This document shows, piece after piece, positions 2,814 to 63,163 of a DNA stretch of 64,000 bases (positions are counted from its first letter, which is position 1; each line of letters opens with the position of its first letter). Under the pieces are notes generated by a model, which ran no database searches, had not been told where the DNA came from, and worked only from the letters and a program-made list of their open reading frames with translations. A program made the position numbers and the translations under genes. The stretch is taken from positions 83,947 to 147,946 of the forward strand of contig JAVCDJ010000203.1 in assembly GCA_030765845.1 (NCBI GenBank), in the 5' to 3' direction. This DNA comes from Candidatus Stygibacter australis. GTDB lineage: Bacteria > Cloacimonadota > Cloacimonadia > Cloacimonadales > TCS61.

Positions 2814-2853
2814 ATAACTAAAACGGGGTTTTCTTGTCAAATCTTTTTTTTGT

Positions 2854-2909
2854 CACTAAGTTAATTGTGCACCGCCGGGTATTTCCAGGTGGGGTGCAGT
2901 TAACGACCG
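2854..2909 (+). repeat. Family-B intergenic repeat, copy B1 (CACTAAGTTA..GTGCACCGCCGGGTATTTCCAGGTGGGG.GCAG.TAACGACC)
   Basis: About 85-90% identical by eye to 60562-60618 (reverse) and about 70% to 9452-9508. Its CTTAGTGAC end is 11 nt from the minus-strand TTGACA of the TetR operon. Confidence 0.8.
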
Positions 2910-9451: not shown

Positions 9452-9508
9452 CAACTAAGTTAGATGTGCATCGCTGGTGTACCCACAAGTGAGGCGCAAA
9501 TAACGACC
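9452..9508 (+). repeat. Family-B intergenic repeat, copy B2 (diverged)
   Basis: CAACTAAGTTAGATGTGCATCGCTGGTGTACCCACAAGTGAGGCGCAAATAACGACC. Its CTTAG end faces a minus-strand TTGACC (9415-9420) upstream of the SBP-permease gene. Confidence 0.65.
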
Positions 9509-9759
9509 TCTATCAAGCGATTACTGAATAGAAAATATCATCTCATCAGCCTATGATAACCAGTTTTCTTCCCAAAATGTTAAAAACCGATAAAATCATA
9601 GAGTATCAATACACATGTTATAGTATAATAATAATGAATTATAAGCTCAAAACACTAAAATCAAAACCTAATCCATATTTTGCATAGATTTTGCTATACT
9701 TTCATAATATAACCACCTGATAATAAACTATTTAACAACTATAACCTGCCCTTAAACCA

Positions 9760-9811
9760 GAACAACAAGGCACAATCTAACATAAAAATGTCAGTACGTG
9801 CTTTGTTGTTC
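9760..9811 (+). repeat. Family-H hairpin element, copy H1
   Basis: GAACAACAAGGCAC-AATCTAACATAAAAATGTCAGTAC-GTGCTTTGTTGTTC, 233 nt upstream of nrdJ. Confidence 0.85.
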
Positions 9812-16944: not shown

Positions 16945-18438
16945 CTATTTAATTAACAGCATTTTATTTGCTGCTTTTTTTTCTCCGTTTGTCATCAGTT
17001 GGTAATAATATACCCCGCTGCCAACTAATGCACCTGCTTGATTTTTCCCATCCCAAATGATTTCTCCTGATTTACCGTTTATTACTCCTTCGTGTGCTAT
17101 TTTTAATTCTCTAACTTTTTGCCCTTTAATATTTGATATTTCAATAATTGTGTTTTCTAAATTGCTATCTATTTCATACTTAATTGTGGTTATTGGATTG
17201 AAAGGATTAGGATAATTACTTAGTCTTTGTTTAATACCGGGTAATTCATTATTATCTACTATCAAATTTCCTTCTTCATCAACTCTTAGTAAAACAAATT
17301 CAGGAAAGAGACATTGTCTGTCCGTTGTTCCGCAATAAATAATATCTCCGTTTATATGTTCAAAGCCTTTCTTATCTTCCTTGCCAATCCAATCAGGATA
17401 GGCAGGACTATTTTCCAGATAATTCCTGCTCCACAATACTTCTCCATCAAATGTTACTTTATGAATTTCTCCTTCTTCTGCGTTGAAAGTTATTAATATA
17501 TTACTGTCGTTAAGTTTAAGAAGTCTTGATGTATTTGATTGATCATAAAATGGTGTCAAAATATCATATTCTTCTAACAGCATTCCAGAAATATTATACT
17601 TTAACAAAAAACCTCGACCTCGTACATAATCCGATTGCCAAGAGAAAGTAAATAAAGTATCTTCATCATACTCTAGCAGACTTGAAAACATTGCGTTTTC
17701 TCGCGTTTTTGTCCATAGAGTGTCTCCTTCTGAATTAAATTTCATCAATGTTCCCCAAAAGGGATTATATGTCTTGAAGCCGCATGTCAAAAATCCACCA
17801 TCTGATGTTTGAATTATTGTATTCATTTCAGGTGGATATTCTCCATTTATCATCAGGTCATAGCCACATTTATACCAGATGATATTACCATCAAAATCTG
17901 TTTTCATTATAGAAGGTGAGGGATAATTATCTGCCATACCTGCCATTATCAAGCCATCTTCTATTATCTGCATGGAATTTATTGTAACACGTAGTGAATC
18001 AATATCCCAATAATTATGTGTTGAAATCAAACCACAATTCTCATCAAGAATATAGAGCACTCTCGGGAAGGTGTATCCGCCTCCTCTTCCTCCTATAGCA
18101 TAATACCTGTCCACTTCGTTAGATACTAATGAACCGAAATAATTACTGAATATTGAAGCATCCTGAACCCGCCATTCCATTTCACCTTCTTCCGATATTT
18201 TCCAGAACATACTCTGTGGTTCTGAATAAAACTCATAGCCAGGTGTTACATAAGCATTTAATAAAAAGCCTCCACCAATTGCTGGTATCACATTGCAACT
18301 CCCGTCACGATAGGAATAAGCAAAATATTCTTCAAAAAGATCACGATACGGATAGCTGTTAAAAAAAGTCGGCTCAGCTTCTAAGAATAAAGTAACACAA
18401 AGTATTATAATTATAATAATAATGATATTTCTGGGCAT
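16945..18438 (-). CDS. Secreted protein (beta-propeller-like, function unknown) with T9SS/FlgD-Ig-type C-terminal domain
   Basis: The ORF track starts at 18483. I prefer ATG 18438 (GGAGGA 5 nt upstream; the product starts MPRNIIIIIIIILCVTLF). The C-terminus is YPNPFNPITTIKYEI...GSGVYYYQLMTNGEKKAANKMLLIK. Confidence 0.7.
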   Translation of the reverse strand: MPRNIIIIIIIILCVTLFLEAEPTFFNSYPYRDLFEEYFAYSYRDGSCNVIPAIGGGFLLNAYVTPGYEFYSEPQSMFWKISEEGEMEWRVQDASIFSNYFGSLVSNEVDRYYAIGGRGGGYTFPRVLYILDENCGLISTHNYWDIDSLRVTINSMQIIEDGLIMAGMADNYPSPSIMKTDFDGNIIWYKCGYDLMINGEYPPEMNTIIQTSDGGFLTCGFKTYNPFWGTLMKFNSEGDTLWTKTRENAMFSSLLEYDEDTLFTFSWQSDYVRGRGFLLKYNISGMLLEEYDILTPFYDQSNTSRLLKLNDSNILITFNAEEGEIHKVTFDGEVLWSRNYLENSPAYPDWIGKEDKKGFEHINGDIIYCGTTDRQCLFPEFVLLRVDEEGNLIVDNNELPGIKQRLSNYPNPFNPITTIKYEIDSNLENTIIEISNIKGQKVRELKIAHEGVINGKSGEIIWDGKNQAGALVGSGVYYYQLMTNGEKKAANKMLLIK

Positions 18439-20542: not shown

Positions 20543-22485
20543 TACTTCAGCAGCAGGCATTTATTTACGGCTTCAGTTTTGCCATTGATCGCCAGTTGAT
20601 AAAAATATATTCCTGAGCCTGCACGCTTACCATTTTCGTCATTGCCATCCCAGATCACTGAATGATCGCCCTGCTCCATTATACTAGATCTCAGCTTCTT
20701 AATCCTTTGTCCTTTAATGTTATAGATAGCCAGCTCCACGTTACAATCAACAGGAATTGAAAACGATATGGTTGTGGCTGGGTTAAAGGGATTGGGGAAG
20801 CAGGATAATTTGTCAAGTTCAGCAATATTGCCGTTATCTTCGTCATCAGGTTCAGGTATTTCTATATGATCAATTGCCACATTGCCTGAATCAGCAACAG
20901 GTTCAGGAAAGTTGAATTGCTCTGGTGCATTCATATTAATCAGATAACCCTGCAAAGGTTCCAGCATTGTCATAGAGCCATACCAGCCCACACCCTCATA
21001 ATAAATTGCGCTTTCAACCTGGCTTTTGATCGCAGCTCCATTTTCCAGATCAGCTAAGGCATAATTGATCTCCTGAGCTTCCTGAGGTGCAAAAGATATC
21101 CAGTTCCAGCCATCGGTTAGCTCATAAGTATTTAACCTCACATTTACAGGAACTCCAGAATATTCCAGAGTGGACGGATTTTCAACCTCCAGTTTGTATA
21201 AGGAGACATTATCAATATGAGTCAATGATCCAAACCAACCCGTGCCCTCATAATAAATAGAGCTTTGAGTTTGACTTTTTAAATTTGAGGCATTATTACC
21301 TATGGAAGCCAGAACTGCATTAGTGGACATATCATCCCCCCTCACATTGAGCGCAAACCAGTTCCAGCCGGATGTAAATTCTTTGCTGACCGTTACTGGG
21401 GGAGGATAAAAGACAAAATCGCTGATCACCACTTCCAGATTTTCACCTATATCAGCATCAGGAAGTAACCATAAATTCAATCTTGCCCGGGCATTTCCCG
21501 CAGGAGGAATGTCATTTCCAGAATATTCCCAGGCTTCGATGATGTCTGCTTCATCAGGTGGATAATCACCCGCATCACCAGACCAGGTAACAAAATTCAA
21601 CTGGTCTTCACTCCAGTTAAAGGCACAGGAAACTTCTCCCTCTGGATAGTAGTCAAATTGATACCGGTTATCATTTTCATACCAGGGCTGAACCACATAT
21701 TGAGCAAAGGGGGTATTGGAATCACCCCAATAAGATAATTCTACATCGATCTCGTGGTAAATATTATCTATATTAGGATTAAAAGTAATCGCTTCATCCC
21801 AGGAAAAGAGTCCCAATACTGCTTCTAAAGGGAAATCAGGGAATCCATCAGCCAGAGTAAAGATATATGTCCCGTAACCCAGTTTTTCTTCACACACTAT
21901 CTCACTGCAATGCCAGAAATCACCATCATCGATAATATTCAAATGCAGATCATCATTGTCATCCACAAAAACCATATTTAAAGCATCAGAAAAATAATTG
22001 TTACCAGGTCCTGCCTGAGCTGTGAAAGTTTTGCAGATCCAATCCAGATCACCAAAACTTATCTCACGATTTCCGGGTAATCGATCAGTAAAGGTATAGG
22101 GAAAGTCAGCAAATTCATCTGGCAGAAATTCATGCCACTGTCCCCATTCTCCTCCAGATTGCGGTGGAACGTAGTCAACGGGGGTCAAAAAAGCAAAATA
22201 ACGAGTTGCTTCCGTATCATATCCTCCCCCGGTCACATCACAAGTCCAGGTGAGATTATCACTTATCAAGCAATAACTCGATGCTGACGGCTTGGGGTAC
22301 CACCATCCGCCATAAAATAGAAATACATGCACTGCATACATTTCGGGCACCGTAATACCCGTCACATGACCATACATATCCTGATCCGACTGAAATTCCG
22401 GCATCTCATCAATAAATATATCCTGTCCTGATATAATACTGCAAAGCCCAATCAGAAATAACACAAACCATAGCTTTTTCATCAT
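20542..22485 (-). CDS. Secreted protein of unknown function with T9SS/FlgD-Ig-type C-terminal domain
   Basis: 647-aa ORF with a signal peptide. Internal duplicated segment (...SIYYEGTGWFGSLT... / ...AIYYEGVGWYGSMT...). The C-terminus is FPNPFNPATTISFSIP...GSGIYFYQLAINGKTEAVNKCLLLK. Confidence 0.7.
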   Translation of the reverse strand: MMKKLWFVLFLIGLCSIISGQDIFIDEMPEFQSDQDMYGHVTGITVPEMYAVHVFLFYGGWWYPKPSASSYCLISDNLTWTCDVTGGGYDTEATRYFAFLTPVDYVPPQSGGEWGQWHEFLPDEFADFPYTFTDRLPGNREISFGDLDWICKTFTAQAGPGNNYFSDALNMVFVDDNDDLHLNIIDDGDFWHCSEIVCEEKLGYGTYIFTLADGFPDFPLEAVLGLFSWDEAITFNPNIDNIYHEIDVELSYWGDSNTPFAQYVVQPWYENDNRYQFDYYPEGEVSCAFNWSEDQLNFVTWSGDAGDYPPDEADIIEAWEYSGNDIPPAGNARARLNLWLLPDADIGENLEVVISDFVFYPPPVTVSKEFTSGWNWFALNVRGDDMSTNAVLASIGNNASNLKSQTQSSIYYEGTGWFGSLTHIDNVSLYKLEVENPSTLEYSGVPVNVRLNTYELTDGWNWISFAPQEAQEINYALADLENGAAIKSQVESAIYYEGVGWYGSMTMLEPLQGYLINMNAPEQFNFPEPVADSGNVAIDHIEIPEPDDEDNGNIAELDKLSCFPNPFNPATTISFSIPVDCNVELAIYNIKGQRIKKLRSSIMEQGDHSVIWDGNDENGKRAGSGIYFYQLAINGKTEAVNKCLLLK

Positions 22486-24711: not shown

Positions 24712-24764
24712 GAACAACTTAGCATAATCTAACAAAAAAATGTCAATATGTGCTTTGTTGTTCC
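24712..24764 (+). repeat. Family-H hairpin element, copy H2
   Basis: GAACAACTTAGCAT-AATCTAACAAAAAAATGTCAATA-TGTGCTTTGTTGTTCC, followed by TCCTGATAATTTTCC. Confidence 0.85.
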
Positions 24765-26003: not shown

Positions 26004-26055
26004 GAACAACAAAACACGCCCCATAAATAAATGTCAGTATGTGCTTCGTTGTTCC
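26004..26055 (+). repeat. Family-H hairpin element, copy H3 (most diverged)
   Basis: GAACAACAAAACAC-GCCCCATAAATAAATGTCAGTAT-GTGCTTCGTTGTTCC, followed by TCCTGATAATTTCC. Confidence 0.75.
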
Positions 26056-39153: not shown

Positions 39154-39237
39154 ATAATTTATAATTAAATACCTCTAAGAATCCCTCTATTGATATCAAT
39201 GATCCACCTCAGACCACCCTGCTTCTGCCATTGAGGA

Positions 39238-39290
39238 GGAACAACAAAGAACTATCTAACATAAAAATGTCACTATGTGCTAAGTTGTTC
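39238..39290 (+). repeat. Family-H hairpin element, copy H4
   Basis: GGAACAACAAAGAAC-TATCTAACATAAAAATGTCACTAT-GTGCTAAGTTGTTC. Confidence 0.85.
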
Positions 39291-52266: not shown

Positions 52267-52320
52267 GGAACAACTTAGCACTATCTAACAAAAAAATGTC
52301 ACTATGTGCTTTGTTGTTCC
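52267..52320 (+). repeat. Family-H hairpin element, copy H5
   Basis: GGAACAACTTAGCAC-TATCTAACAAAAAAATGTCACTAT-GTGCTTTGTTGTTCC. Confidence 0.85.
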
Positions 52321-52333
52321 ACTTCCAAGTGGC

Positions 52334-52384
52334 TTCATAATTAGTATAAAATATACGTTAATCATCGGAAAAAGTGAAAAATGG
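52334..52384 (+). repeat. 51-nt module TTCATAATTAGTATAAAA.A.ACGTTAA.CATC.GAAAAAGT.AAA, copy 1
   Basis: About 85% identical to 60406-60455 in the same orientation. The two copies bracket the 52-60 kb island. Confidence 0.8.
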
Positions 52385-52415
52385 AATTTCAGGGGAATTA
52401 CTCAGATTGAGAATT

Positions 52416-52538: not shown

Positions 52539-53915
52539 ATGATAATTAGTTTTTCTGTCAGCAATTTTCTTTCCATAAAGGAAGAGCAGGTTTTAAGTTT
52601 TGAGGCAAGCAGTGATGAGAGTTATAATGAATACTTTATCCGGGAAATCGGCAAATACAGGCTTCTTAAGATGGGAATCATTTATGGGGCAAATGCCTCT
52701 GGCAAGACCAATATTTTAAAAGCACTCGATGTTCTAAGACAGCTTGTGACAAGATCACGTGATGCAGATAAGGATATATATTACACTCCGTTTTTATTTG
52801 ATGATGAATATAAGACGGGAAACTGCAAAATGAAGCTTGAGTTTCTGGTAGGGGATGAGGGTAAATATGTAAAACACATTTATGAACTGGAATTTAATGC
52901 CAAAGAAATAGTAAATGAGTCTTTGAAATATTATCCAGGCCAGCAGCCGGCTATGATTTATAATAGGGTAAAAAATACAAATCTGGAGAGGGGGTACACG
53001 TTAAAATTTAGTAATGGTTCAAAACCTAAATCAGAGGAGCAGAATATTCTGGAAAGCAGTACTTTGATCAATAATACAATATTATCAGCTTTTAATAAAG
53101 TGAATCCCATAATTCCCAAAACGAAACGTGTGAGAAAATGGTTTGATTACTACATGACACGGTTGTTATCACAGGAAAATAAAGCTGATGAGAAAACAGC
53201 TGATGTTTTTTTTAAGAAATCCATACAGAGACAGGGAATTTTAAATGAATTTATAAAAAAAGCTGACTATAATGTTTCTAAATTTATTATTTCAGAAGGA
53301 AATTGGAAATTTACAGAAGATAGAAAAGATTTTGCATTAAAATTTGGTGAATTAATTTATTCCTTAGATGAGTCAAACTCTGCGATGTCAAATTGGAAAA
53401 ACCAAATTGATAAAATAACTCAATTACCAATTACAAAAAAAGAACTTAGTCATGTTTACAAGGTTAAGGGAGAATTAAAGGAGGGTAATTTACCATATCT
53501 GCTGGAGTCAAATGGGACTAAACGGAGTTTTGAATTGGCAGCGCCACTTATAGAGAATTTAATGAAGGGTAAAATAATGATATTAGATGAGATAGAATCT
53601 TCACTTCATTTTGATTTAGTGAAATATATCATATTAGTATTTCTGGCAAATTCTGAGAATTCGCAGATGCTTTTTACTACCCATAATCTTCTTTTGCTGG
53701 ACTGGGATATCTTACGTCATGATGTTATCTGGTTTACAGAGAAGAAAGAAGATGGCTCAACAGACTTATATTCTCTGGCAGACTTTAAGGAATTGAATCG
53801 TAGTAATATATTGAAAAGATACTTAAGTGGTCAGTTTGGAGCAAAACCAGACATCTATGATTATAAGCTGAATCTGCAGGATCTGAAAGAGGATAGCAGT
53901 GGCAAGAAAAATTAA
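52539..53915 (+). CDS. AAA_21/ABC-type ATPase (AbiLi/RloA-like)
   Basis: 458 aa. Walker A GANASGKTN, Walker B IMILDEIESSLH, H-loop TTHN. Overlaps the downstream RloB-like gene by 17 nt. Confidence 0.7.
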   Translation: MIISFSVSNFLSIKEEQVLSFEASSDESYNEYFIREIGKYRLLKMGIIYGANASGKTNILKALDVLRQLVTRSRDADKDIYYTPFLFDDEYKTGNCKMKLEFLVGDEGKYVKHIYELEFNAKEIVNESLKYYPGQQPAMIYNRVKNTNLERGYTLKFSNGSKPKSEEQNILESSTLINNTILSAFNKVNPIIPKTKRVRKWFDYYMTRLLSQENKADEKTADVFFKKSIQRQGILNEFIKKADYNVSKFIISEGNWKFTEDRKDFALKFGELIYSLDESNSAMSNWKNQIDKITQLPITKKELSHVYKVKGELKEGNLPYLLESNGTKRSFELAAPLIENLMKGKIMILDEIESSLHFDLVKYIILVFLANSENSQMLFTTHNLLLLDWDILRHDVIWFTEKKEDGSTDLYSLADFKELNRSNILKRYLSGQFGAKPDIYDYKLNLQDLKEDSSGKKN

Positions 53916-54513
53916 AAAGCGGAAATTAGAGAAAAAAATTTTGATCCTGGGCGAAGGAACCAGTGAGCAATCGTATTTTATAGAAATGAAAGAATCAGAG
54001 CATCTCAGTTATACTATTAAACCTGAATTGCCTAAGAACTCCAATTATGATACTATTTTCAAAAAGGCGGAAAACGAAGCAGAATATTACTTAAAGGTAT
54101 TTTGTCTAATAGACTTAGATTATATCATCAGGGATGGATTGTATTCAGAATATAATAATTATAAGCAGAAATTACAAAGAGAAAATAAGAATGTACAGAT
54201 ATTTGAGAATTATCCCTGCCTGGAAACCTGGTTTGCCTTTCACTATGCGTATTTCAGCAGAGAATTTGCATCCTGTAAAGACCTGATAAATGAATTTTTA
54301 AATATCAAAAATCGCTTAATGGATTATAAAAAGGGAGCCAGTTCCAGGAAATATTATAATCAACTAAAACCGTATCAAAATGAAGCAATTATAAGAGCTG
54401 AAAGAACTTTTCAAAATAGATCGAATGGGATTGCTGAAAATCTCTACCGAGTGAACGATTGCCAGGTGGCATTTACCGAAATATATCTGATTATCAGGGA
54501 ATTATTGAGCTAA
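53899..54513 (+). CDS. RloB-like (TOPRIM-related) protein (AbiLii-like)
   Basis: 204 aa. GTG start 5 nt after AAGAGGA. N-terminal ILILGEGTSEQSYF and internal CLIDLDY match the RloB family pattern as I know it. Confidence 0.65.
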   Translation: MARKIKKRKLEKKILILGEGTSEQSYFIEMKESEHLSYTIKPELPKNSNYDTIFKKAENEAEYYLKVFCLIDLDYIIRDGLYSEYNNYKQKLQRENKNVQIFENYPCLETWFAFHYAYFSREFASCKDLINEFLNIKNRLMDYKKGASSRKYYNQLKPYQNEAIIRAERTFQNRSNGIAENLYRVNDCQVAFTEIYLIIRELLS

Positions 54514-55105: not shown

Positions 55106-55813
55106 ATGGAAAACACTGATTTAAAAATCGGATTAGCAATGTTAGAGGATGTTGAAAATGACTTAGAAGCAACATATGGTAATGTTCTTGCCTGGGGACC
55201 TATTACAAGTATCGAAGGCTTTAATGGAAGAGGAGCAACACAAAGGCTGACAAAAGATTTGAAAGTTGCTAAAAAGAAAATTGGCGATTTCCAACAAGGT
55301 CAAGCAAAAGCAGCCTTTTTAATGGGAAGAATTTGTGCTGTTGGTGTGGGTAGAGATTTTAGCCATCGGATACACCTTAAATGTATGAAATATTATGAAG
55401 AAGCAATTGAATTAGGTTATGATGAAGCGATAGTGAAGTATTGTATGGCTAAACATAAAGATGCCTGGGATAAAAAGAAGGCATCTATTGAACTTTACGA
55501 GAGAGTTGTAGAATTAATGGGGATTGATAATCCCAATGGAATGGATTCAGCAAAGCAAATAGAAAAACTTAAATCAAAAAAAGGTTGTTTCATTGCGACA
55601 GCAGTATATGGTTCCTATTCTGCACCTGAAGTCATAGTGTTAAGAAGATTTAGAGATGACATTTTATTACCTTCGCAAATTGGAAGTATTTTTGTAAAAT
55701 TCTATTATCTTACTTCACCGCCTATTGCGAGGTTTTTAGAGAAACATAAACTTCTGCAGAAATTTGTCCGAGATTTTATAATTCAGCCTATTGTGAATTT
55801 GTGTAAAAAATAA
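55106..55813 (+). CDS. Hypothetical protein: Sel1/TPR-like N-terminal part and a C-terminal GCFIATAxYGS-type conserved domain
   Basis: 235 aa. SD AAGGAG. No signal peptide. C-terminus KKGCFIATAVYGSYSAPEVIVLRRFRDDILL...FVKFYYLTSPPIARFL is a recurrent domain of unknown function that I recognise by motif only. Confidence 0.6.
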   Translation: MENTDLKIGLAMLEDVENDLEATYGNVLAWGPITSIEGFNGRGATQRLTKDLKVAKKKIGDFQQGQAKAAFLMGRICAVGVGRDFSHRIHLKCMKYYEEAIELGYDEAIVKYCMAKHKDAWDKKKASIELYERVVELMGIDNPNGMDSAKQIEKLKSKKGCFIATAVYGSYSAPEVIVLRRFRDDILLPSQIGSIFVKFYYLTSPPIARFLEKHKLLQKFVRDFIIQPIVNLCKK

Positions 55814-55838: not shown

Positions 55839-56696
55839 ATGGATAAAATTCAAGAAGTGATCGATGAGATTATAGAAGAACCATATACGATGGCATTTTG
55901 CTATAATTGTGGAACAGAAAATCAAGATGCAGAAGAAAATGATATATGTAAAAACTGTGGGGAAAAAATATCACTATCAATTAATGAATTAAAAGGAAAA
56001 ATCAAGCGATATTGCCGAGAATGCGGAGAGCAAATTAATGAATCAGAGGATTATTGTTTAGCTTGTGGTATGGATATAGAATTGTCTACTGAAGATTTGC
56101 TCTGCATGGTATTGTTAGAACTTATTGAAGAAGAAGACCGTAAAGATGCTCTTGAATTCGGTAAGAATTTACTTGAATATCTAGAAGGTCATTATCAAAG
56201 GTTTGTGGCTTCAGGTTTTATGAAATCAATATACGGTGAATTATTTGTAGAGAAGTTTGGAAATTCATCTCCTGATCTTACTTTTGCACAAATACCTGAT
56301 AGTGAGTTAAATGATGATATTTTCGCAAGCATACTAGAATATTCTCAAATTACAATCGAAGAATTTAACCAACTTCCATCAAAAAGAAAGCAGATTCTTG
56401 AAAAATTTCCATTAAGAAGGAAAATGATTCAAGATATGAAGACAATTTGTTATGAAGGACCAATTGAGTTGGCTAAACGTGGTTTAACTAATAAATCAAA
56501 CAATCCCCAAGCTACAAAAAAAACTTATAAATATTCATCACATGGTTCATTTCAGGGTTCAAAAGGTATACTTATACTTTGGGGAAGTTTAACATTAATT
56601 TCTTTAATTTGCTTAATTGCTGGTTTGGGGGGGCTCTTCTCTATGATATTGTTTGGTGCAATAACTTACTATTATTGGAAATCGAAAACAATATAA
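55839..56696 (+). CDS. Double zinc-ribbon protein with a C-terminal two-helix membrane anchor
   Basis: 285 aa. SD GGAGGG. CYNCG...CKNCG and CRECG...CLACG. C-terminus GILILWGSLTLISLICLIAGLGGLFSMILFGAITYYYW. Confidence 0.6.
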   Translation: MDKIQEVIDEIIEEPYTMAFCYNCGTENQDAEENDICKNCGEKISLSINELKGKIKRYCRECGEQINESEDYCLACGMDIELSTEDLLCMVLLELIEEEDRKDALEFGKNLLEYLEGHYQRFVASGFMKSIYGELFVEKFGNSSPDLTFAQIPDSELNDDIFASILEYSQITIEEFNQLPSKRKQILEKFPLRRKMIQDMKTICYEGPIELAKRGLTNKSNNPQATKKTYKYSSHGSFQGSKGILILWGSLTLISLICLIAGLGGLFSMILFGAITYYYWKSKTI

Positions 56697-56906: not shown

Positions 56907-57077
56907 TTGAGCAAACCAAAATCCAAAACAACAAATTATAGTGGCATCTCAGATGCACTTTCCGGAACCAAAACCTATAAGACGAAAATTTCCGATGGGA
57001 AAAAAAGTGTATCTGCATTAGGATCGCCAAAGACTTCACAAAAGCGAGCTTCAGATAAGTGGAATAAAAAGAAGTAG
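56907..57077 (+). CDS. Small basic Lys/Ser/Thr-rich protein (56 aa), not in the ORF track
   Basis: TTG start 7 nt after AAGGAGA. My translation: MSKPKSKTTNYSGISDALSGTKTYKTKISDGKKSVSALGSPKTSQKRASDKWNKKK. Confidence 0.35.
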   Translation: MSKPKSKTTNYSGISDALSGTKTYKTKISDGKKSVSALGSPKTSQKRASDKWNKKK

Positions 57078-57253: not shown

Positions 57254-57811
57254 ATGGAGGGTATCTTGAAAAGAAAGATTTATTGTTTATTGGTGCTTGT
57301 GTTATTAATCTTAGGTTGCACAGAAGATACTACAACCGAAGTAACAGTTCAAGATAATAATGCAGATCAAGTATATAATATATCACCACAATCCGGATTG
57401 ATTGGAAACGTGGATCTGTATTTAATACCGGAAACTATACAAGGATCTGCAATAGTTATTATTAATGGACCAGGCAGTGCAATAGGATATGATATCCGTG
57501 ATGCTGAAGACCAGGCATTTATATATTTTGCGGATAGTTATATTGCAGCTGGAGGTTCATCGTTGCAATCAGGGACAATTTTACCAACAAACAGGTGGGT
57601 AAAAATAAGATTAGTCCTTTATGAATCCGGGCTTGCTGGTTGGATTGTCACGTTTTTACAGTATCTTGGATTAGATTTCTTCGATAGTCTGGAAGATTAT
57701 ATGATTGCTGAAGTATATGAGATAGATGTAATGCTCGAAGATAATAGAGGAGGGCAGAAAATCATAAAAGGTGTTTGGCAGGAAATAACAGATCAAATAA
57801 AAAACAAATAG
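57254..57811 (+). CDS. Lipoprotein of unknown function
   Basis: 185 aa. Lipobox LLILGC. An in-frame TTG at 57266 (4 nt after GGAGGG) is an alternative start. Confidence 0.6.
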   Translation: MEGILKRKIYCLLVLVLLILGCTEDTTTEVTVQDNNADQVYNISPQSGLIGNVDLYLIPETIQGSAIVIINGPGSAIGYDIRDAEDQAFIYFADSYIAAGGSSLQSGTILPTNRWVKIRLVLYESGLAGWIVTFLQYLGLDFFDSLEDYMIAEVYEIDVMLEDNRGGQKIIKGVWQEITDQIKNK

Positions 57812-57820
57812 GAGGGAATG

Positions 57821-57997
57821 ATGTCAGCTACAGTTATTGGGAGAGTAAAATCCGGAAGTTATAAGTCTTATGAAGTGAAATGGGATTCAGCAAGCAAGGA
57901 TACTTATGTGTCTTATGCTGGCTGGACAAGCGTAGGAAAAGCTTATTCTGCCGGTGAAGCTATGAATAAAGCTGAAGCTTTTTTGTATAATAAATAA
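57821..57997 (+). CDS. 58-aa hypothetical protein, not in the ORF track
   Basis: ATG 4 nt after GGAGGG, which overlaps the upstream stop. MSATVIGRVKSGSYKSYEVKWDSASKDTYVSYAGWTSVGKAYSAGEAMNKAEAFLYNK. Confidence 0.45.
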   Translation: MSATVIGRVKSGSYKSYEVKWDSASKDTYVSYAGWTSVGKAYSAGEAMNKAEAFLYNK

Positions 57998-58007
57998 GGA
58001 GAATAAA

Positions 58008-58106
58008 ATGCTATATGTATTGATAATAATAAATATTATTGTTGTAAATTATGTGACTATTTTCAAGAAGATATCTCCACAAAAAGAGCAGAAAATGATT
58101 TCGTAG
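58008..58106 (+). CDS. 32-aa single-TM micro-protein, not in the ORF track
   Basis: ATG 4 nt after AAGGAGA. MLYVLIIINIIVVNYVTIFKKISPQKEQKMIS. Confidence 0.35.
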   Translation: MLYVLIIINIIVVNYVTIFKKISPQKEQKMIS

Positions 58107-58196
58107 AATAAGCAGACAAGGCACGAATTGACCTTTCTCTGGAGAGGATTTAGCGAATAATCATAATAGTGAATTAAGTCAAATAGGATTGTTTAA

Positions 58197-58529
58197 ATGA
58201 TAAATGTTTATAAACCGTTTGGTGGTCATCTGGGTTTCAGGAAAGATAATGATGTCTTCATATCCGGTGGATTATTTGGTCAGGGGCGCAAAATAGGGGA
58301 GATAAAAGGCAATGATATTTACTCAATAGGTGTATTATTTGGTAAAACAAAACTTGGTTATGTTTCAGGAAATTACGTCTATACAACCTTCGGGAGCCTG
58401 TTTGGTGCAAGTAAGGTTGGGGTTATAGTTGGAAAAGATATATATGATACAAATAGAAATCACTTAGCTCATATGGATGCTGCTGACCCGCAATTAGGGG
58501 CAGCAACTATTTTGTTACTGATAAAATAA
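58197..58529 (+). CDS. 110-aa protein with three internal ~20-aa Gly-rich repeats
   Basis: LFGQGRKIGEIKGNDIYS / LFGKTKLGYVSGNYVYT / LFGASKVGVIVGKDIYD. Weak SD. Confidence 0.5.
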   Translation: MINVYKPFGGHLGFRKDNDVFISGGLFGQGRKIGEIKGNDIYSIGVLFGKTKLGYVSGNYVYTTFGSLFGASKVGVIVGKDIYDTNRNHLAHMDAADPQLGAATILLLIK

Positions 58530-58547
58530 CCAATTTAGGGAGATTGA

Positions 58548-60371
58548 ATGGAAAATACCGATAAGATTAAATCTTTGTATGAAAAAGGAAGCAAGCTGGT
58601 TGAGGAAGATCAAACAGAGGAAGCTATTGCGATTTTTAATGAAATAATATCTTTGGATCCAGGATTTTACAAAGCATATTTTCAAAGAGCACATTTGTAT
58701 ATGTCTTCGGGTGATATTGATAATGCTATCAGTGATTTTAGTGCTGGGCTAGAAATTAAACAAGATGCTTATGCCTATTTGTTAAGAGCATCTGCATACG
58801 ATACCAAAGAAATGTTTGAGCAGTCATCAAGAGATTATAGCAAGGTAATTAAACTTGAATCTGATCCTGGCATCCTGTATTTTGCCCATTTGAATCGCGG
58901 GTCAGCATTCAATTATTTAGAGAGATATTCGGAAGCTGTTGAAGATTTCACAAAAGCTATGGAAATAAATCCGGAAGATCCCAAAGCATTTAGAGGAAGA
59001 GCCATTGCTTACTTTCATCTTAACCAGATTGATAAATCAATAGATGACTGGTCAACCGTGATAAAGCTAACGCCTGATGACGCAGAACCTTATAAAAAGA
59101 GAGCTTCCTTATATTTTCAGATTGATAGATCTATAGATGCAATTAAGGACTCTACTAAATCAATTGAGCTTGATCATAATGATATTGAGTCCTATATAAT
59201 CCGGGGTTCCTCCTATCTTAAAGAAAGTGATGTCATAAAAGCAAAAACAGATCTGCAATTCGCTAAAAATAAGGGAAATGAAGCAGCAGCTCAACTTTTA
59301 ATAGAGATCGATATGATGTTTGATGTAGATACTTTGCTCGAAAAGGGTAATAAGGCTCTGCTGGAAAAAGATTATGAAAGTGCCTTCAATCATCTATCCA
59401 AGGCACAGGCGGTCTCTAATGCGCCCAATGTTCTAACGTCATTAGCAACTGCCTTAAAGCACCTTGGCAGATTTGAAGATGCCATATTCTGTTTAGAAAA
59501 AGCTTTAAACGAAACTTCAGATCCGGAAACACTGGGTTCGGTCACTTATAATTTAGGGAATATTTTCCGGGAAACAGACAGATTTGAGGATGCCATCAAG
59601 TGGTATATCAAATCAATTAAATTCCGCCCTGATCATATAGGCGTACACTATAATCTTGGAATGTCTTATGAAGCAATCGAAGAACATGACCTCGCTATAA
59701 AAGAATTGGAGACAGTTTTACAGATAGATCCCAAACTGAATGACGTAAGAAGCCGGATTGAACTCATCAAAGAAACCGGGAATGATATCCGAAGTGAAAA
59801 AATACCGGATAGTGCGGGTGATTCACATTTTCTGCCGGAAAATAAAGAGCTTAGAGAAAATATAGCTCGTGCTACAGAAATGTGTGCCAGGGACGATGAA
59901 TTCGAAGAGATAATTTTCCATTTAGAAAAGATATTGAAAATTGATCCTGAGTGCAGTGATCCTGAGTTTTTACTTGTTGCTTGTATTGTATATAGCGGAA
60001 TTGCCTTGAAGTTGAAGGATTTTTCGCCAGAAGCTAAAAATGCCGTAAAATTTGGCAGAAAATTGCTGGCTATTGAAGAAAAGAAATCCAATCCATCTGA
60101 TGATATATTATTTTCAGCTTATCGAGCTCTATTATTGGGTTATTTTAGACTTAATGAATATGATCAGGCAAAGGAATTTGGCACAAAAGCATTAAAGATT
60201 ATACCGGATTCTGAAGTCATAATAAAATTGATGGAGTGGCTGCAGGCAAATAGGACCAGTGAAGATACTATCCCCTCAATTCAAACTCCTGCCAAGCCCA
60301 AAGCAGGATGTCTCGGGACAATATTTTTGATGTTGTTTTATTGCTCATGTTTTTTATATTTGTTATTATAA
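58548..60371 (+). CDS. TPR-repeat protein with a C-terminal Cys + hydrophobic tail anchor
   Basis: 607 aa with more than 10 TPR units. C-terminus PAKPKAGCLGTIFLMLFYCSCFLYLLL. The N-terminus MENTDKIK resembles that of the 235-aa protein (MENTDLKI). Confidence 0.7.
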   Translation: MENTDKIKSLYEKGSKLVEEDQTEEAIAIFNEIISLDPGFYKAYFQRAHLYMSSGDIDNAISDFSAGLEIKQDAYAYLLRASAYDTKEMFEQSSRDYSKVIKLESDPGILYFAHLNRGSAFNYLERYSEAVEDFTKAMEINPEDPKAFRGRAIAYFHLNQIDKSIDDWSTVIKLTPDDAEPYKKRASLYFQIDRSIDAIKDSTKSIELDHNDIESYIIRGSSYLKESDVIKAKTDLQFAKNKGNEAAAQLLIEIDMMFDVDTLLEKGNKALLEKDYESAFNHLSKAQAVSNAPNVLTSLATALKHLGRFEDAIFCLEKALNETSDPETLGSVTYNLGNIFRETDRFEDAIKWYIKSIKFRPDHIGVHYNLGMSYEAIEEHDLAIKELETVLQIDPKLNDVRSRIELIKETGNDIRSEKIPDSAGDSHFLPENKELRENIARATEMCARDDEFEEIIFHLEKILKIDPECSDPEFLLVACIVYSGIALKLKDFSPEAKNAVKFGRKLLAIEEKKSNPSDDILFSAYRALLLGYFRLNEYDQAKEFGTKALKIIPDSEVIIKLMEWLQANRTSEDTIPSIQTPAKPKAGCLGTIFLMLFYCSCFLYLLL

Positions 60372-60405
60372 GAAATCACTGTCATCCAGTTAAGCATTAA
60401 GTAGG

Positions 60406-60455
60406 TTCATAATTAGTATAAAACTTACGTTAAGCATCAGAAAAAGTAAAAGAAG
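60406..60455 (+). repeat. 51-nt module TTCATAATTAGTATAAAA..., copy 2
   Basis: TTCATAATTAGTATAAAACTTACGTTAAGCATCAGAAAAAGTAAAAGAAG, compared with 52334-52384. Confidence 0.8.
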
Positions 60456-60466
60456 AACTTGCACAG

Positions 60467-60510
60467 CTAACGGTACTCCGGAAGTGGGGCGAGAACTACG
60501 TGCAGTTATC
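60467..60510 (+). repeat. Partial family-B repeat (inverted relative to B3)
   Basis: CTAACGGTACTCCGGAAGTGGGGCGAGAACTACGTGCAGTTATC shares GGTA.T.C.GGAAGTGGGGCG with the family-B core. Confidence 0.5.
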
Positions 60511-60561
60511 AGCAGCAATTCATATTATTACCTTCTTCTTTTTCAGGGATTTGTTGGTAGC

Positions 60562-60618
60562 GGTCGTTATCTGCGCCCCACCTGGAAATACCCGGCGGTG
60601 CACATATAACTTAGTGAC
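60562..60618 (-). repeat. Family-B intergenic repeat, copy B3
   Basis: Reverse complement is GTCACTAAGTTATATGTGCACCGCCGGGTATTTCCAGGTGGGGCGCAGATAACGACC. Its CTTAGTGAC end points toward the 60782 gene. Confidence 0.8.
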
Positions 60619-60646
60619 ATTAGTGGTTAATGATCTTCTTTGTTTT

Positions 60647-60679
60647 GTGGACGGAATGGACAGGGTGGACGGTGTAGGA
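60647..60679 (+). repeat. 9-bp-phased TGGAC array, copy D3
   Basis: GTGGACggaATGGACaggGTGGACggtGTAGGA, 32 nt upstream of TTGACT (60712-60717). Confidence 0.8.
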
Positions 60680-60781
60680 AGACTTAAAAAAGCTGATGGA
60701 TAAGATTATACTTGACTAATTATCACACATAAATCTAATTTATAAAGAGTATTAAAAATAAACGATTAAACGAAGGGAAAA

Positions 60782-63163
60782 ATGTTATTACGATGTGTGC
60801 TGACTGTTATTTTTTTAAATGCAATAAATGTACTATTTTGCCAGGTAGTGATAAATGAGCTGTATTATGATCATCCAGGTGGTGATGATGGTGAGGAATG
60901 GGTGGAATTATATAATACCAGCAGTGAAGCGATCAATCTTGAGTATTGGAGAATCGAAAAGGGAGGGAGTGAGTTTGAAACTGTTTTGTTTCTTCCGTTT
61001 ATCATAATCGAAGGAAATGGATATTTACTTATTGGTGAATCTAATGTGCCGGGTGCAGATATTTACGCTGAACTGGTTTTTCAAAACGGAGGTAGCACTA
61101 CGGATGGGGTAAGGTTGGTATCTGGTTTCGGTCCCTGGACAGATACAGTTCTTTATGATTCACCAAATTCTAATGAGCTTATCGATGATACGGGGTTTGC
61201 CGGGGTCAGTTTTGCTCCAGATGTGACAGCAGGACATTCGCTGGGTAGAATCCCCAATGGATATGACAGCAATCAGGGAAGTGACTGGCAGGAATGTGAA
61301 AATCTTAGTCCCGGGACAGCTAATATAATCAGCATTGATCTGGAGATCAGCGAGGCGGAGTTAACGTTAATTGATGGCAATATTTGCTTATACACAGTGG
61401 TCCATAATCTATCCACAGGGGGTGTGGATAACTCTGTAGGCAGCCTTGATATTTACTTTAATAATCAACCATTTGAGAGTTTGCCGATAAACGAAATATC
61501 AGGAAATGAGAGTCTGGAATACAGTTATGAATTAGGCGAATCAGTAGCTGGATACTCTCAGACAGAATTAATCATTAACTCCATATATGACAATAACTTG
61601 GAAAACAATATATCAGGATGCTCGATCCTTATTGAAATGAGTCCCTTGTGGTATAATGAATTGATGATCAAGCCTTTAGGAAATGACTGTGAATGGGTGG
61701 AGATAATTGTTGATAACTATGTGGATAACTTTGTGGATAACTTGTATATTCGTGATGCTGTGGGCAATACAGGGAGTTTTGCTGCTGCTGATCTGGGGGA
61801 AGGATTTCTGGTGATATGTGATGAGCCGGAAAGTTTGATAGCTAATTATGGACTTACTGCAAGTCAGGTGATAGAGAGTGAACAATTGCCTGGAATGAAT
61901 AATGAAGGAGATATACTATATCTGGAAGATGAGTGGGGAACGCTGCTGGATATGGTGGAATATGGTGCCCTAGCAGGAAATGAAGAGGGAATAAGCTGGG
62001 AAAGGATCAATCCTCTATCAGATGATAGCGACTGGGGGCATTGCATTAGTGAATCTGGTCAAACTGCGGGATATGCTAACAGTCTGATGCAGGGAATGAT
62101 CGATCTGGCGCTGGATTTGAAGGGGGTTAATCTGCAGGAAGAATATCTGGAGCATCATCTGCTGGTGACCAGTGCGGGAATTGAACAAGTGGATGATGCT
62201 GAGCTGGTGATAAGCTGGCAGGTGTTTTCAGGCGGAAATTATGGAAGCTATTCAGAGAATATAATAATTGATTCTGACAGTTTGGAAATTGTAATAAACA
62301 CAGAACTGCCGGGCAGTGGGTTTTATGAATACACCTATCAGCTGGAGGTAGAGGGCGATACAGATCTGAGCAATAATGTAGTAGTGAATTATTTTAATCA
62401 GGGTAGTCTGGGCTGGGTGATCAATGAGATCATGTATCACCCGAAAGCCGGGGAGCCGGAATGGCTGGAACTTAAGAGGAATGTGGGATATGGCATGGCA
62501 GATAATTTATGGGTAATAGTGGATGATGACAGCTGTGAGATCGCTGCTGCGGGAGAATATGTAATTGTAACCGGATCAGAATCTGATGTGGAGGAGATGT
62601 GGGGATTATATGGAGAGGATCTGGAAATATCTGAGGGATTGAAGAGGCTAACTGATAGTGGCTGTGAGATAGGTATAAAAGATATGTATGGCAATATAAT
62701 AGAATTATTCAGCTATGATCCAGACTGGAACCAGTCAATTCAGGGAGTATCCATTGAACGGGTAAATCCGCTTTTACCGGCGAGTGAAGACAACTGGAGC
62801 CGCAGTGTGTCAGAATGCACTCCCGGAGAAGCAAACAGCATTTATACAGAATTACCAGTGACAGGATCGAAATTGACTATCACTCCAGAGGTATTTTGTC
62901 CGAGGGATGGTGAACATACAGTGATCAGTTATCAAAACAGCGAGAATCTTAATCTGGTGAGAATAGCTATCTATGATCTGAAAGGGCGAAAGATATGTAA
63001 ATTAGTTGATCATGAATACCAGGGAGCCAATGGGTATTACATCTGGGACGGAAGAAATGAAGCAGGTAAAATCGTAAAAATGGGAATTTACATAATCCTT
63101 TTTGAGACTTCAGCAGCAGGTAATATAAAAGTAGAGAAAAAGACGGTAGTAGTAAAAAGATAG
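60782..63163 (+). CDS. Secreted protein with three lamin-tail domains (LTD) and a FlgD-Ig/T9SS-type C-terminal domain
   Basis: 793 aa. LTD signatures VVINELYYDHPGGDDGEEWVELYNTS, LWYNELMIKPLGNDCEWVEII and WVINEIMYHPKAGEPEWLELKRN. C-terminus VRIAIYDLKGRKICKL...YIWDGRNEAGKIVKMGIYIILFE. Confidence 0.7.
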   Translation: MLLRCVLTVIFLNAINVLFCQVVINELYYDHPGGDDGEEWVELYNTSSEAINLEYWRIEKGGSEFETVLFLPFIIIEGNGYLLIGESNVPGADIYAELVFQNGGSTTDGVRLVSGFGPWTDTVLYDSPNSNELIDDTGFAGVSFAPDVTAGHSLGRIPNGYDSNQGSDWQECENLSPGTANIISIDLEISEAELTLIDGNICLYTVVHNLSTGGVDNSVGSLDIYFNNQPFESLPINEISGNESLEYSYELGESVAGYSQTELIINSIYDNNLENNISGCSILIEMSPLWYNELMIKPLGNDCEWVEIIVDNYVDNFVDNLYIRDAVGNTGSFAAADLGEGFLVICDEPESLIANYGLTASQVIESEQLPGMNNEGDILYLEDEWGTLLDMVEYGALAGNEEGISWERINPLSDDSDWGHCISESGQTAGYANSLMQGMIDLALDLKGVNLQEEYLEHHLLVTSAGIEQVDDAELVISWQVFSGGNYGSYSENIIIDSDSLEIVINTELPGSGFYEYTYQLEVEGDTDLSNNVVVNYFNQGSLGWVINEIMYHPKAGEPEWLELKRNVGYGMADNLWVIVDDDSCEIAAAGEYVIVTGSESDVEEMWGLYGEDLEISEGLKRLTDSGCEIGIKDMYGNIIELFSYDPDWNQSIQGVSIERVNPLLPASEDNWSRSVSECTPGEANSIYTELPVTGSKLTITPEVFCPRDGEHTVISYQNSENLNLVRIAIYDLKGRKICKLVDHEYQGANGYYIWDGRNEAGKIVKMGIYIILFETSAAGNIKVEKKTVVVKR

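Follow-up and report, generated by a model that had tools for sequence, protein, structure and literature searches.

We analyzed a window of 64,000 nucleotides (nt) from Candidatus Stygibacter australis, phylum Cloacimonadota; the window is the whole stretch of DNA under study. Directly 3' of an AbiLi/AbiLii defense pair it carries a cluster of genes for a lipoprotein, a 58-amino-acid (58-aa) protein, a 32-aa open reading frame (ORF), a 110-aa glycine-repeat protein and a 607-aa tetratricopeptide repeat (TPR) protein (Table 1). Comparison with related loci supports the view that this cluster is a mosaic of accessory sub-modules on a low-GC (guanine plus cytosine) block and not a fixed five-gene operon. 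The sequences further support the glycine-repeat protein, a probable beta-flower protein, and the TPR protein with its predicted tail anchor as the sole tightly conserved functional pair of the cluster. From the anatomy of the proteins and from their neighborhood we infer the topology, interactions and role of a membrane-tethered TPR scaffold in a conflict island. This is our best explanation, held tentatively and with somewhat less than even confidence, and it is set against a rival, possible though doubtful, in which the genes form no functional unit.

Table 1. Features of the window and of related loci (coordinates are those of the window unless an L-number, denoting another contig or locus, is given)
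Feature	Coordinates	Strand	Remarks
AbiLi	52539-53915	+	PADLOC AbiLi, E=3e-80; Pfam AAA_21
AbiLii	53899-54513	+	PADLOC AbiLii, E=5e-17; Pfam RloB; overlaps AbiLi gene
235-aa protein	55106-55813	+	helical N-terminal domain and CFI-box-CTERM (NF041770)
285-aa double zinc-ribbon protein	55839-56696	+	Pfam Zn_Ribbon_1, DZR; two-helix membrane hairpin at C terminus (...YYYWKSKTI)
K56, 56-aa Lys-rich protein	56907-57077	+	probably disordered; TTG start, AAGGAG 8 nt upstream
Lipoprotein, 185 aa	57254-57811	+	signal peptide and lipobox Cys
58-aa protein	57821-57997	+	cytoplasmic; four predicted beta-strands and C-terminal helix
32-aa ORF	58008-58106	+	most likely a stump from the 5' end of a gene for a single-pass membrane protein
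Gene remnant	58124-58153	+	RIDLSLERI and stop (last nine codons plus stop); source gene of 97/98 aa intact in L010 and L077
110-aa Gly-repeat protein	58197-58529	+	probable five-petal beta-flower (Tubby clan) and C-terminal hydrophobic helix
607-aa TPR protein	58548-60371	+	predicted tail anchor G587-L607 at 60306-60368
793-aa protein	60782-63163		downstream of the cluster
Related C-terminal domains	16951-17247, 20545-20811, 12463-12657 (- strand)		in three other window genes
Palindromic element, ~55 nt	52268-52320, 24712-24764, 39231-39290, 9760-9811, 26025-26055	+	dispersed copies
GC-rich element, ~60 nt	60561-60619 (+), 2851-2909 (-), 9454-9516 (-)		conserved copies
115-137-aa family	L077 5094-5441; L027 5572-5985; L036 5765-5980; L047 5449-5796; L052 4677-5294		accompanies the 58-aa gene
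~1,300-aa proteins	L034 2053-5997; L046 5590-9564		abut the 58-aa gene
58-aa gene region of L019	L019 4131-4859, 6640-7002		one gene copy interrupted
Lipoprotein-CRISPR regions	L082 4561-6549; L080 4251-6546; L079 34-2915; L012 7001-7552		type III CRISPR-Cas surroundings

Gene order in related loci

All five ORFs of the preliminary description were found at their positions on the plus strand. Their common direction, their tight spacing and an order mostly shared in relatives agreed with the operon it proposed. The idea of a fixed five-gene unit did not hold, since a sixth conserved gene lies upstream, the lipoprotein and 58-aa families occur mostly elsewhere with other neighbors, and one relative, L077, has no 58-aa gene. 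Contigs L001 to L004 were near-identical to the window, and six loci including the window were comparable (Table 2).

Table 2. Gene order in the six comparable loci
Locus	Order (5' to 3')
Window	CFI-box, zinc-ribbon/two-helix membrane protein, K56, lipoprotein, 58-aa, [32-aa], beta-flower, TPR (607 aa)
L005	684-aa tail-anchored, K56, lipoprotein, membrane protein (135 aa called; 144-aa ORF), 58-aa, 176-178-aa, beta-flower, TPR (422 aa)
L010 (3' part only)	58-aa, 156-aa, 97-aa, beta-flower, TPR
L017	two-transmembrane helical, K56 (frameshifted), lipoprotein, 58-aa, 88-aa membrane, beta-flower, degenerate CFI-like, second beta-flower-like
L074	two-transmembrane helical, K56, lipoprotein, 98-aa membrane, 58-aa, beta-flower, TPR
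L077	K56-like, lipoprotein, 157-aa zinc-ribbon membrane, 98-aa, beta-flower, TPR (420-424 aa); no 58-aa gene

The K56-lipoprotein genes at one end and the beta-flower-TPR genes at the other kept their order in the window, L005, L074 and L077, and likewise in L017, except that a CFI-like gene stands there for the TPR gene. In all five loci carrying both the beta-flower and the TPR gene, the two were separated by 16 to 22 nt. The constant pairs are K56-lipoprotein and beta-flower-TPR; the 58-aa gene is usual but dispensable, and the slot behind it is variable. The syntenic loci shared 61 to 97% aa identity with many synonymous differences. Between the window and L005, identity at third codon positions was 0.49 to 0.67 in every conserved gene, compared with 0.69 to 1.00 at positions 1 and 2, a pattern that points to coding genes under purifying selection and not to recent identical copies. 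The cluster lies within a low-GC block of approximately 52.5 to 60.4 kb (GC 0.31 to 0.36 over 52 to 60 kb versus about 0.40 to 0.44 on both sides), and the AbiLi/AbiLii pair forms the upstream edge of this block.

We propose that four sub-modules would make up the mosaic. The first would consist of K56 and the exported lipoprotein, whose family is otherwise found in defense islands or beside type III CRISPR-Cas effectors. The second would be the 58-aa protein, which in several phyla neighbors TPR proteins, J-domain-TPR proteins with a dedicated Hsp70, and CFI-box-CTERM proteins. A variable cargo slot, here apparently decayed to the 32-aa stump and nine codons of a lost gene, would be the third, and the closely spaced beta-flower and TPR proteins the fourth.

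The same arrangement could also have arisen without any functional unit, if unrelated accessory genes had piled up by chance in an island or hot spot, with the shared order reflecting no more than recent common descent. That the lipoprotein occurs alone or beside CRISPR-Cas, and that the 58-aa gene mostly has other neighbors in the 57 genomes in which it was found, would be expected in this case; so would a slot that varies between loci and is decaying in the window, the lack of the 58-aa gene in L077, and the gaps of 176 to 210 nt before and after the K56 gene. However, the order is kept at 61 to 75% aa identity with saturating synonymous change, the narrow beta-flower/TPR gap is fixed in five loci while both families are rare, and in several phyla the 58-aa gene is again found in association with TPR, J-domain-TPR and CFI-box proteins. 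We consider a chance cluster possible, on the unlikely side.

The probable beta-flower protein and the TPR protein

The 110-aa protein contains three clear LFGxxKxGxxxGxxxY repeats, as had been described, and one degenerate unit before them. It is linked to the beta-flower clan (Pfam models PF21784-6, clan CL0395) through its relatives: P0002, 66 to 67% identical, scored 25.3 against a PF21784 cutoff of 25, and P0106, a distant relative linked by profile (E=2.4e-6), scored 35.9 against a PF21786 cutoff of 34. With TPR and CFI-box-CTERM matches above cutoff in two other proteins, the earlier statement that no component matches a family had to be dropped. The beta-flower fold comprises 8, 10 or 12 short antiparallel strands arranged as hairpin "petals," and in many members a hydrophobic alpha-helix stands at the C terminus; the consulted part of the source describing it proposes no function for the fold and mentions no link to a tail-anchored TPR gene (PMC10584680).

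Like these proteins, the 110-aa protein appears to be built of short beta-hairpins repeated over about 100 residues, and its C terminus is hydrophobic, with a helix predicted at residues 98 to 108. The motif GAAT(I/L)LLL(I/L)K, which reads GAATILLLIK in the window, was invariant in close relatives and took the form GAAALLLLL in the distant relatives P0106 and P0108. The window protein differs from the described beta-flower proteins in its sub-threshold match, in the small size of its subfamily (1.84 billion representatives yielded six relatives at E<=1e-3) and in being always followed by the tail-anchored TPR gene in clusters with both. No relative was found in IMG/VR, and a metagenome scan with the beta-flower alignment gave no matches.

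The 607-aa protein gave 34 TPR-type Pfam matches (TPR_1, E=3e-60, 198 bits, seven stretches; TPR_2, 161 bits). PF20308 (TPR-S) matched residues 275 to 369 with 40.7 bits against a cutoff of 27.6; since this match lies beneath far stronger generic TPR matches, no functional conclusion is drawn from it. As first described, the protein has no N-terminal signal peptide and ends in Gly-Cys and a hydrophobic tail. Its N terminus (MENTDKIKSLYEKGSK; MENTDKIKSLYEKGSKLVEEDQ) is hydrophilic, and the lack of a signal peptide argues that it is made in the cytoplasm. The tail, PAKPKAGCLGTIFLMLFYCSCFLYLLL, carries G587 and C588 at 60306-60311, has Lys residues before the helix and ends in ...CFLYLLL without a basic residue. 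Hydropathy over the last 19 residues was 2.2, and residues 585 to 607 passed the Kyte-Doolittle threshold of 1.6; a second, weak hydrophobic stretch (residues 474 to 492) lies inside the helical-repeat region. Thus the protein has both features by which we defined a tail anchor, namely one hydrophobic helix in the last ~30 residues and no signal peptide. Of the real genes in the window, the TPR gene was the only one ending in a hydrophobic 19-mer; two other matches were frames of about 100 codons inside or antisense to longer ORFs.

The first ~250 residues of the protein are conserved and residues ~255 to 580 are lineage-specific. The orthologues in L005 (422 aa) and L077 (420 to 424 aa) showed 61 to 68% identity over the first ~254 residues and then diverged; between the window and L005, the N-terminal part had 66 synonymous and 99 non-synonymous codon differences. 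The middle 170 to 330 residues differ, and K, KK or KKK followed by G-C-L and a hydrophobic run to the stop was found in all three orthologues (L005, KKGCLASIVFVLSFLILIIVYLV; L077, KKKGCLTSIIMILSIIISVIAYII). A metagenome scan with the TPR N terminus added L074 as the sole further locus. We read the tail as a probable tail anchor that would leave the TPR scaffold in the cytoplasm.

The same dipeptide, Gly-Cys, opens the C-terminal modules of the partner proteins: AGCLGTIF... in the window, KKGCLASIV... in L005, KKKGCLTSII... in L077, GAGCFGMILG... in the J-domain-TPR protein of L041 (a Cloacimonas metagenome-assembled genome [MAG]), DSGCLGPIVI... in that of L053 (a Pirellulaceae MAG), and KKGCFIATAVYG... 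in the CFI box. The TPR tail shares the basic-G-C-[FL] start with CFI-box-CTERM domains, and in L017 a degenerate CFI-like protein takes the place of the TPR gene. The tail is, however, 21 residues long compared with the 69 positions of the CFI-box model, which it did not match.

In the preliminary description the tail was likened to either a sorting signal or a tail anchor. Conservation in orthologues and the missing signal peptide bear out the latter. If it were a sorting signal, the Gly-Cys and the hydrophobic tail would direct C-terminal sorting or lipidation of the Cys type, as in MYXO-CTERM or exosortase/rhombosortase systems; a dedicated enzyme would cleave the tail or add a lipid at the Cys, and the TPR protein would undergo processing and not plain anchoring. 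CTERM signals (PEP-CTERM/exosortase, GlyGly-CTERM/rhombosortase and MYXO-CTERM) also place a short motif before a hydrophobic helix at the extreme C terminus, and MYXO-CTERM likewise has a conserved Cys. The G-C is invariant in the three orthologues and recurs in the J-domain-TPR proteins of L041 and L053, where a first predicted membrane helix comes before it and a second helix with a short basic end after it, a tripartite layout. Furthermore, CFI-box domains open with G-C-F-I-A, and two Myxococcota neighbors of the 58-aa gene end in GGC, a hydrophobic stretch and an Arg-rich end, a layout like that of MYXO-CTERM that no hidden Markov model (HMM) confirmed. Against such a signal, the 607-aa protein has no signal peptide, the N-terminal J domains of its relatives imply a cytoplasmic location and action, and its Lys residues precede the helix, with no basic residue or end cluster after it. 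None of four tails matched an NCBIfam model at E<=10 (for the window protein, the last 38 residues were searched, with the CFI-box model included), and no sortase-like Pfam family or other sorting enzyme gene was detected within 10 kb on either side of the cluster. We therefore regard Cys-dependent processing or lipidation as improbable, and retain it on account of the tripartite resemblance in L041 and L053.

The 58-aa protein

An alignment of 117 homologues placed the start of the 58-aa gene at MSAT (57821) and not at the ATG at 57818; its Shine-Dalgarno sequence, TAGGAGG, overlaps the lipoprotein stop, in agreement with the preliminary description. The family comprised 228 clusters in the protein database and was present in 57 species genomes from more than 12 phyla, including Cloacimonadota, Bacteroidota, Ignavibacteria, Calditrichota, Desulfobacterota, Myxococcota, Planctomycetota, Acidobacteriota, Nitrospirota, Chloroflexota, Actinomycetota, Zixibacteria, KSB1 and others. 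Homologues were always free-standing and about 58 residues long. Among 36 full-length genes, mean aa identity was 72%, identities at the three codon positions were 0.77, 0.81 and 0.39, and GC content ranged from 35 to 69%, which together indicate long residence in the hosts and strong purifying selection. Between the window and L005 there were 18 synonymous and 3 non-synonymous codon differences. The 58-aa protein is the most conserved element of the cluster; of the two micro-ORFs that had been put forward for a conservation check, it is the one that proved a genuine gene under strong purifying selection.

AlphaFold2 modeled four strands and a helix with a predicted local distance difference test (pLDDT) score of 88.6. 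The model had no significant fold match in PDB or BFVD, the protein matched no family in Pfam, NCBIfam, PHROGs or PADLOC (the libraries scanned throughout), and the family had no relative in IMG/VR. Among 25 members, 10 gave sub-cutoff Pfam matches to Tudor_3 (best E 0.019), and 5 gave such matches to Chromo (best E 0.009). An hhalign comparison of RVKSGSGKSYEVKWD with the HP1 chromodomain segment RVRKGK-VEYYLKWK gave a probability of only 0.7%; locally, the hairpin RVKSG.GKSYEVKWD aligned with the HP1 hairpin RVRKGKVEYYLKWK. The 58-aa protein is thus possibly Chromo/Tudor-like, which we treat as a lead. A DUF1508/YegP label, given by UniRef to one relative, was rejected: the window protein and 25 relatives had no DUF1508 match at E<=10, and no YegP structure was among the PDB sequence or fold matches. 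Sso7d was rejected as well (hhalign probability 0.1%).

The neighbors of the 58-aa gene were mostly unannotated and heterogeneous, and three themes recurred. TPR-type proteins were found at 10 loci. A short DnaK-like Hsp70 with a J-domain-TPR membrane protein was present at four (one Cloacimonas and three Bacteroidota MAGs), and a J-domain-TPR protein without Hsp70 in L053. CFI-box-CTERM proteins occurred at six loci from several lineages, all within 2 kb of the gene though the flanks reach 6 kb. This supports a putative affinity of the 58-aa protein, judged by neighborhood, for G-C-anchored helical-repeat proteins.

These neighborhoods could instead point to a membrane-proteostasis or co-chaperone module, in which the TPR protein would be related, though without a J domain of its own, to membrane-anchored J-domain-TPR co-chaperones that act with a dedicated Hsp70, and the 58-aa protein would be a cofactor or client. 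In L041 the order is 58-aa, Hsp70 (after a 1-nt gap) and J-domain-TPR with a GCF tail; the three Bacteroidota loci have Hsp70, J-domain-TPR and 58-aa, L053 has J-domain-TPR and 58-aa, and a ClpB-like AAA+ protein adjoins the 58-aa gene in L032. The predicted architecture, a cytoplasmic helical domain with a C-terminal membrane anchor, resembles that of tail-anchored J-domain co-chaperones, for example, Escherichia coli DjlC with its specialized Hsp70, HscC. In contrast to these, the 607-aa protein has no J domain and the window cluster no Hsp70, the link to Hsp70 or J-domain proteins is seen in just 5 of 57 loci, and the similarity of the TPR protein beyond generic repeats is weak (E=2e-5). 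A co-chaperone module accordingly receives little weight from us.

Three further observations concern the surroundings of the 58-aa gene. A family of 115 to 137 aa (MKLxIxKEQ..GGISF...SFKNYIEVM..FGGEE), itself uncharacterized, accompanies it in Desulfobacterota, Calditrichota and other phyla; L077, a Cloacimonadota cluster, has a member too, hinting at a wider guild of small genes that travel together. In two Myxococcota/"Deltaproteobacteria" MAGs (L034 and L046) it abuts genes for homologous proteins of about 1,300 aa, with a 3-nt gap in L034; these end in ..SGGC.., a hydrophobic stretch and an Arg-rich end, an end reminiscent of MYXO-CTERM; as no NCBIfam model matched, that assignment was rejected. 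In the Cloacimonadota MAG L019, one copy is broken after codon 20 and an intact copy lies nearby; the interrupting sequence recurs about 2 kb upstream, with a common ..PHFCQHQLVIKKLFKGITGF.. reading frame, and is probably a repeated or mobile insertion.

The lipoprotein and K56

By eye, the N terminus of the 57254-57811 product (MKRKIYCLLVLVLLILGC) shows a basic stretch, a hydrophobic stretch and LILGC, and the Cys behind the hydrophobic segment was conserved in every homologue examined. The product is a probable signal peptidase II substrate, in line with the lipoprotein of the preliminary description; some gene calls start at TTG 57266, giving 181 aa. The family had 100 homologue clusters (45 to 100% identity), nearly all from Cloacimonadota MAGs, and none of the 100 carried a Pfam domain.

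In 4 of 11 sampled contexts (L012, L079, L080 and L082), genes for type III CRISPR-Cas effectors adjoined the lipoprotein family, which makes it a candidate accessory gene. In L080 and L082 the gene lies between the CRISPR array and the effector genes, 10 and 13 nt upstream of a CorA-like and a Cas10-palm gene; in L079 it adjoins the array, Cas6 and a Cmr operon; and the L012 gene, a paralogue from the same species, has type III accessory (APE2256) and Cmr genes at a distance of 1 kb. Elsewhere it stands beside BrxC/D-like ATPases and a restriction-modification system (L014), near AbiEii (L081) or in housekeeping surroundings (L016 and L083). In the window it is 2.7 kb downstream of the AbiLi/AbiLii pair.

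The sixth conserved gene, K56, had been overlooked in the preliminary description and is called as a gene in L001 to L003. It preceded the lipoprotein gene in all five readable loci, with orthologues in L074, in L077 and in L005, where 55 aligned codons gave 73% identity, and with a frameshifted copy in L017. Codon-position identities to L005 were 0.82, 0.89 and 0.55. K56 had no match in NCBIfam, PHROGs or PADLOC, nor in Pfam with the L005 orthologue as query.

The variable slot and its remnants

Across relatives, the slot behind the 58-aa gene held between zero and two unrelated genes: one of 176 to 178 aa in L005, two in L010 (156 and 97 aa) and L077 (157 and 98 aa), and none in L074. The 32-aa ORF in the window has a single hydrophobic helix and AAGGAGA upstream, as had been noted. 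In position and spacing it corresponds to the 88-aa single-pass membrane protein gene of L017, and the N termini are similar (MLYVLIIINIIVV.. versus MGYLIIIVIFIVI..). Eighteen nt downstream, in a different frame, lies the remnant CGAATTGACCTTTCTCTGGAGAGGATTTAG, which was 86% identical over 44 nt to positions 808 to 851 of L010 (blastn, E=1e-11); the intact genes end in ..RIELYLERI (L010) and ..ERIDLYLERI (L077), each followed by the stop. The simplest reading of these sequences is a deletion of the cargo genes that spared the stump on the 5' side and the remnant on the 3' side; translation of the stump may continue. As a conserved micro-protein the 32-aa ORF was rejected, being confined to the near-identical contigs L001 to L004 with a gene remnant alongside.

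Neighboring genes upstream

The AbiL pair is context and lies outside the operon as first proposed. It shares strand and low-GC block with the cluster and stands immediately upstream, but the five cluster genes have no similarity to AbiL components, the link being one of neighborhood. In L018 (Candidatus Tenebribacter davisii), too, a related AbiLi-like/AAA_21 gene was observed, directly 3' of the 58-aa gene.

In the 235-aa protein, NF041770 (CFI-box-CTERM) matched residues 161 to 226, starting KKGCFIATAVYGS, with 89.9 bits against a cutoff of 40, and an identical protein bears the CFI-box-CTERM name at NCBI as well; in the literature we found no paper describing the CFI box. A start of the form MENTD..KI and a K-x-G-C junction are literally common to this protein and the 607-aa TPR protein. 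The paralogy that this had hinted at was rejected (best BLASTP E = 5.2), and the junction proved to be a recurrent feature: G-C-[FL] is found in TPR, J-domain-TPR and CFI-box proteins beside the 58-aa gene elsewhere. The C-terminal hairpin of the 285-aa protein showed homology (36% identity, E=2e-10) to the protein that takes its position in L017 and also resembled the L074 counterpart.

Proposed role of the cluster

We propose that the last 21 residues hold the TPR protein at the inner membrane: the hydrophobic end would pass through the bilayer, and the conserved Gly-Cys would stay on the cytoplasmic side together with the Lys residues. On the membrane's cytoplasmic face, the tethered scaffold would then gather the beta-flower protein and soluble partners, for example, the 58-aa protein. 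By analogy with Tubby, the beta-flower would likely be a lipid- or membrane-binding barrel, and the scaffold may act within a conflict or defense-island function.

Several results weigh against a scaffold of this kind. The 110-aa protein itself matched PF21785 at E=0.005 with 17.2 bits, below the cutoff of 38, with a weak PF21784 match too; its AlphaFold2 model, built on a three-sequence alignment, had nine strands and a helix at a mean pLDDT of 50, and a Foldseek search with such a model is meaningless. The families are largely independent in distribution, the lipoprotein being solitary or CRISPR-linked elsewhere, and L077 keeps the cluster without the 58-aa gene. In other phyla, the neighbor maps of the 58-aa gene come from our own greedy ORF calling and not from a gene finder; they also hold PPDK-like, TraG-like, ankyrin, caspase and ClpB-like proteins, and a handful of the 105 neighbors were defense-like. 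Apart from AbiL, PADLOC gave a generic TPR match and nothing else among the components.

Immunity arrays typically mix small cytosolic proteins, lipoproteins and membrane-anchored proteins and vary between strains; the small, diverse, co-directional genes with strain-variable content and decay on a low-GC island beside defense genes would fit an array of orphan proteins that confer immunity to polymorphic toxins or to phage effectors, but there is no Pfam immunity-family match and no nearby toxin gene, and a protein as extremely conserved across phyla as the 58-aa one differs from fast-evolving immunity proteins, so that we hold this to be very unlikely.

More boldly than the membrane-tethered scaffold itself, one may imagine that the 58-aa protein and membrane-anchored helical-repeat proteins with a C-terminal module opening in Gly-Cys-[Phe/Leu] (tail-anchored TPR, J-domain-TPR with Hsp70, and CFI-box-CTERM proteins) constitute a new cross-phylum system. 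The juxtamembrane Cys would be functional (in lipidation, processing or as a metal or disulfide switch), the 58-aa protein, possibly Chromo/Tudor-like, would be the adaptor common to them, and the Cloacimonadota beta-flower would have been recruited as a membrane-acting effector in defense islands. We offer this as a conjecture with a rather small chance of being right.

Other features of the window

A phage origin of the cluster was rejected: neither the 58-aa nor the beta-flower protein had a relative in IMG/VR, and PHROG matches were limited to generic TPR, zinc-ribbon and AbiL. The repeats bracketing the block (52327-52391 and 60399-60463; a 53-nt match of 52327-52379 to 60399-60451) had unremarkable folding z-scores, and they are not attachment (att) sites but multi-copy upstream elements also present elsewhere in the window. 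For the GC-rich spacer (60440-60700), a structured RNA was rejected too, with no Rfam match and an unremarkable folding z-score.

Two dispersed elements were observed. The palindromic one (GAACAACAAAGCAC...GTGCTTTGTTGTTC) lies about 200 to 540 nt upstream of the next plus-strand gene, forms a strong hairpin on folding (z-scores of -6.5 and -4.9) and had no Rfam family match. The GC-rich one (GGTCGTTATCTGCGCCCCACCTGGAAATACCCGGCGGTGCAC...) lies 90 to 220 nt upstream of three genes, including the Lamin-tail domain (LTD) protein gene at 60782; it is not an att site, and its folding z-scores were unremarkable. Besides its Lamin-tail domains, the 793-aa product of this downstream gene carries at its C terminus a domain similar to the sorting domains of type IX secretion (FlgD-Ig/CHU_C); the related C-terminal domains in three other window genes were 32 to 33% identical.

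Implications

Nothing in the cluster is a member of a characterized system. Its parts are known domain types in a combination that we did not find described, together with an uncharacterized, widely conserved small protein, and their value lies in testable leads and not in a solved system. The 58-residue family, absent from Pfam, NCBIfam, PHROGs and PADLOC, is newly identified, and its members from more than a dozen phyla retain about 72% identity. The CFI-box-CTERM domain is now tied to the 58-aa/Gly-Cys neighborhood, and the Cloacimonadota lipoprotein family is a candidate type III CRISPR-Cas accessory gene. For the beta-flower fold, the conserved pairing with a predicted membrane-tethered TPR scaffold provides a clue from genomic context.

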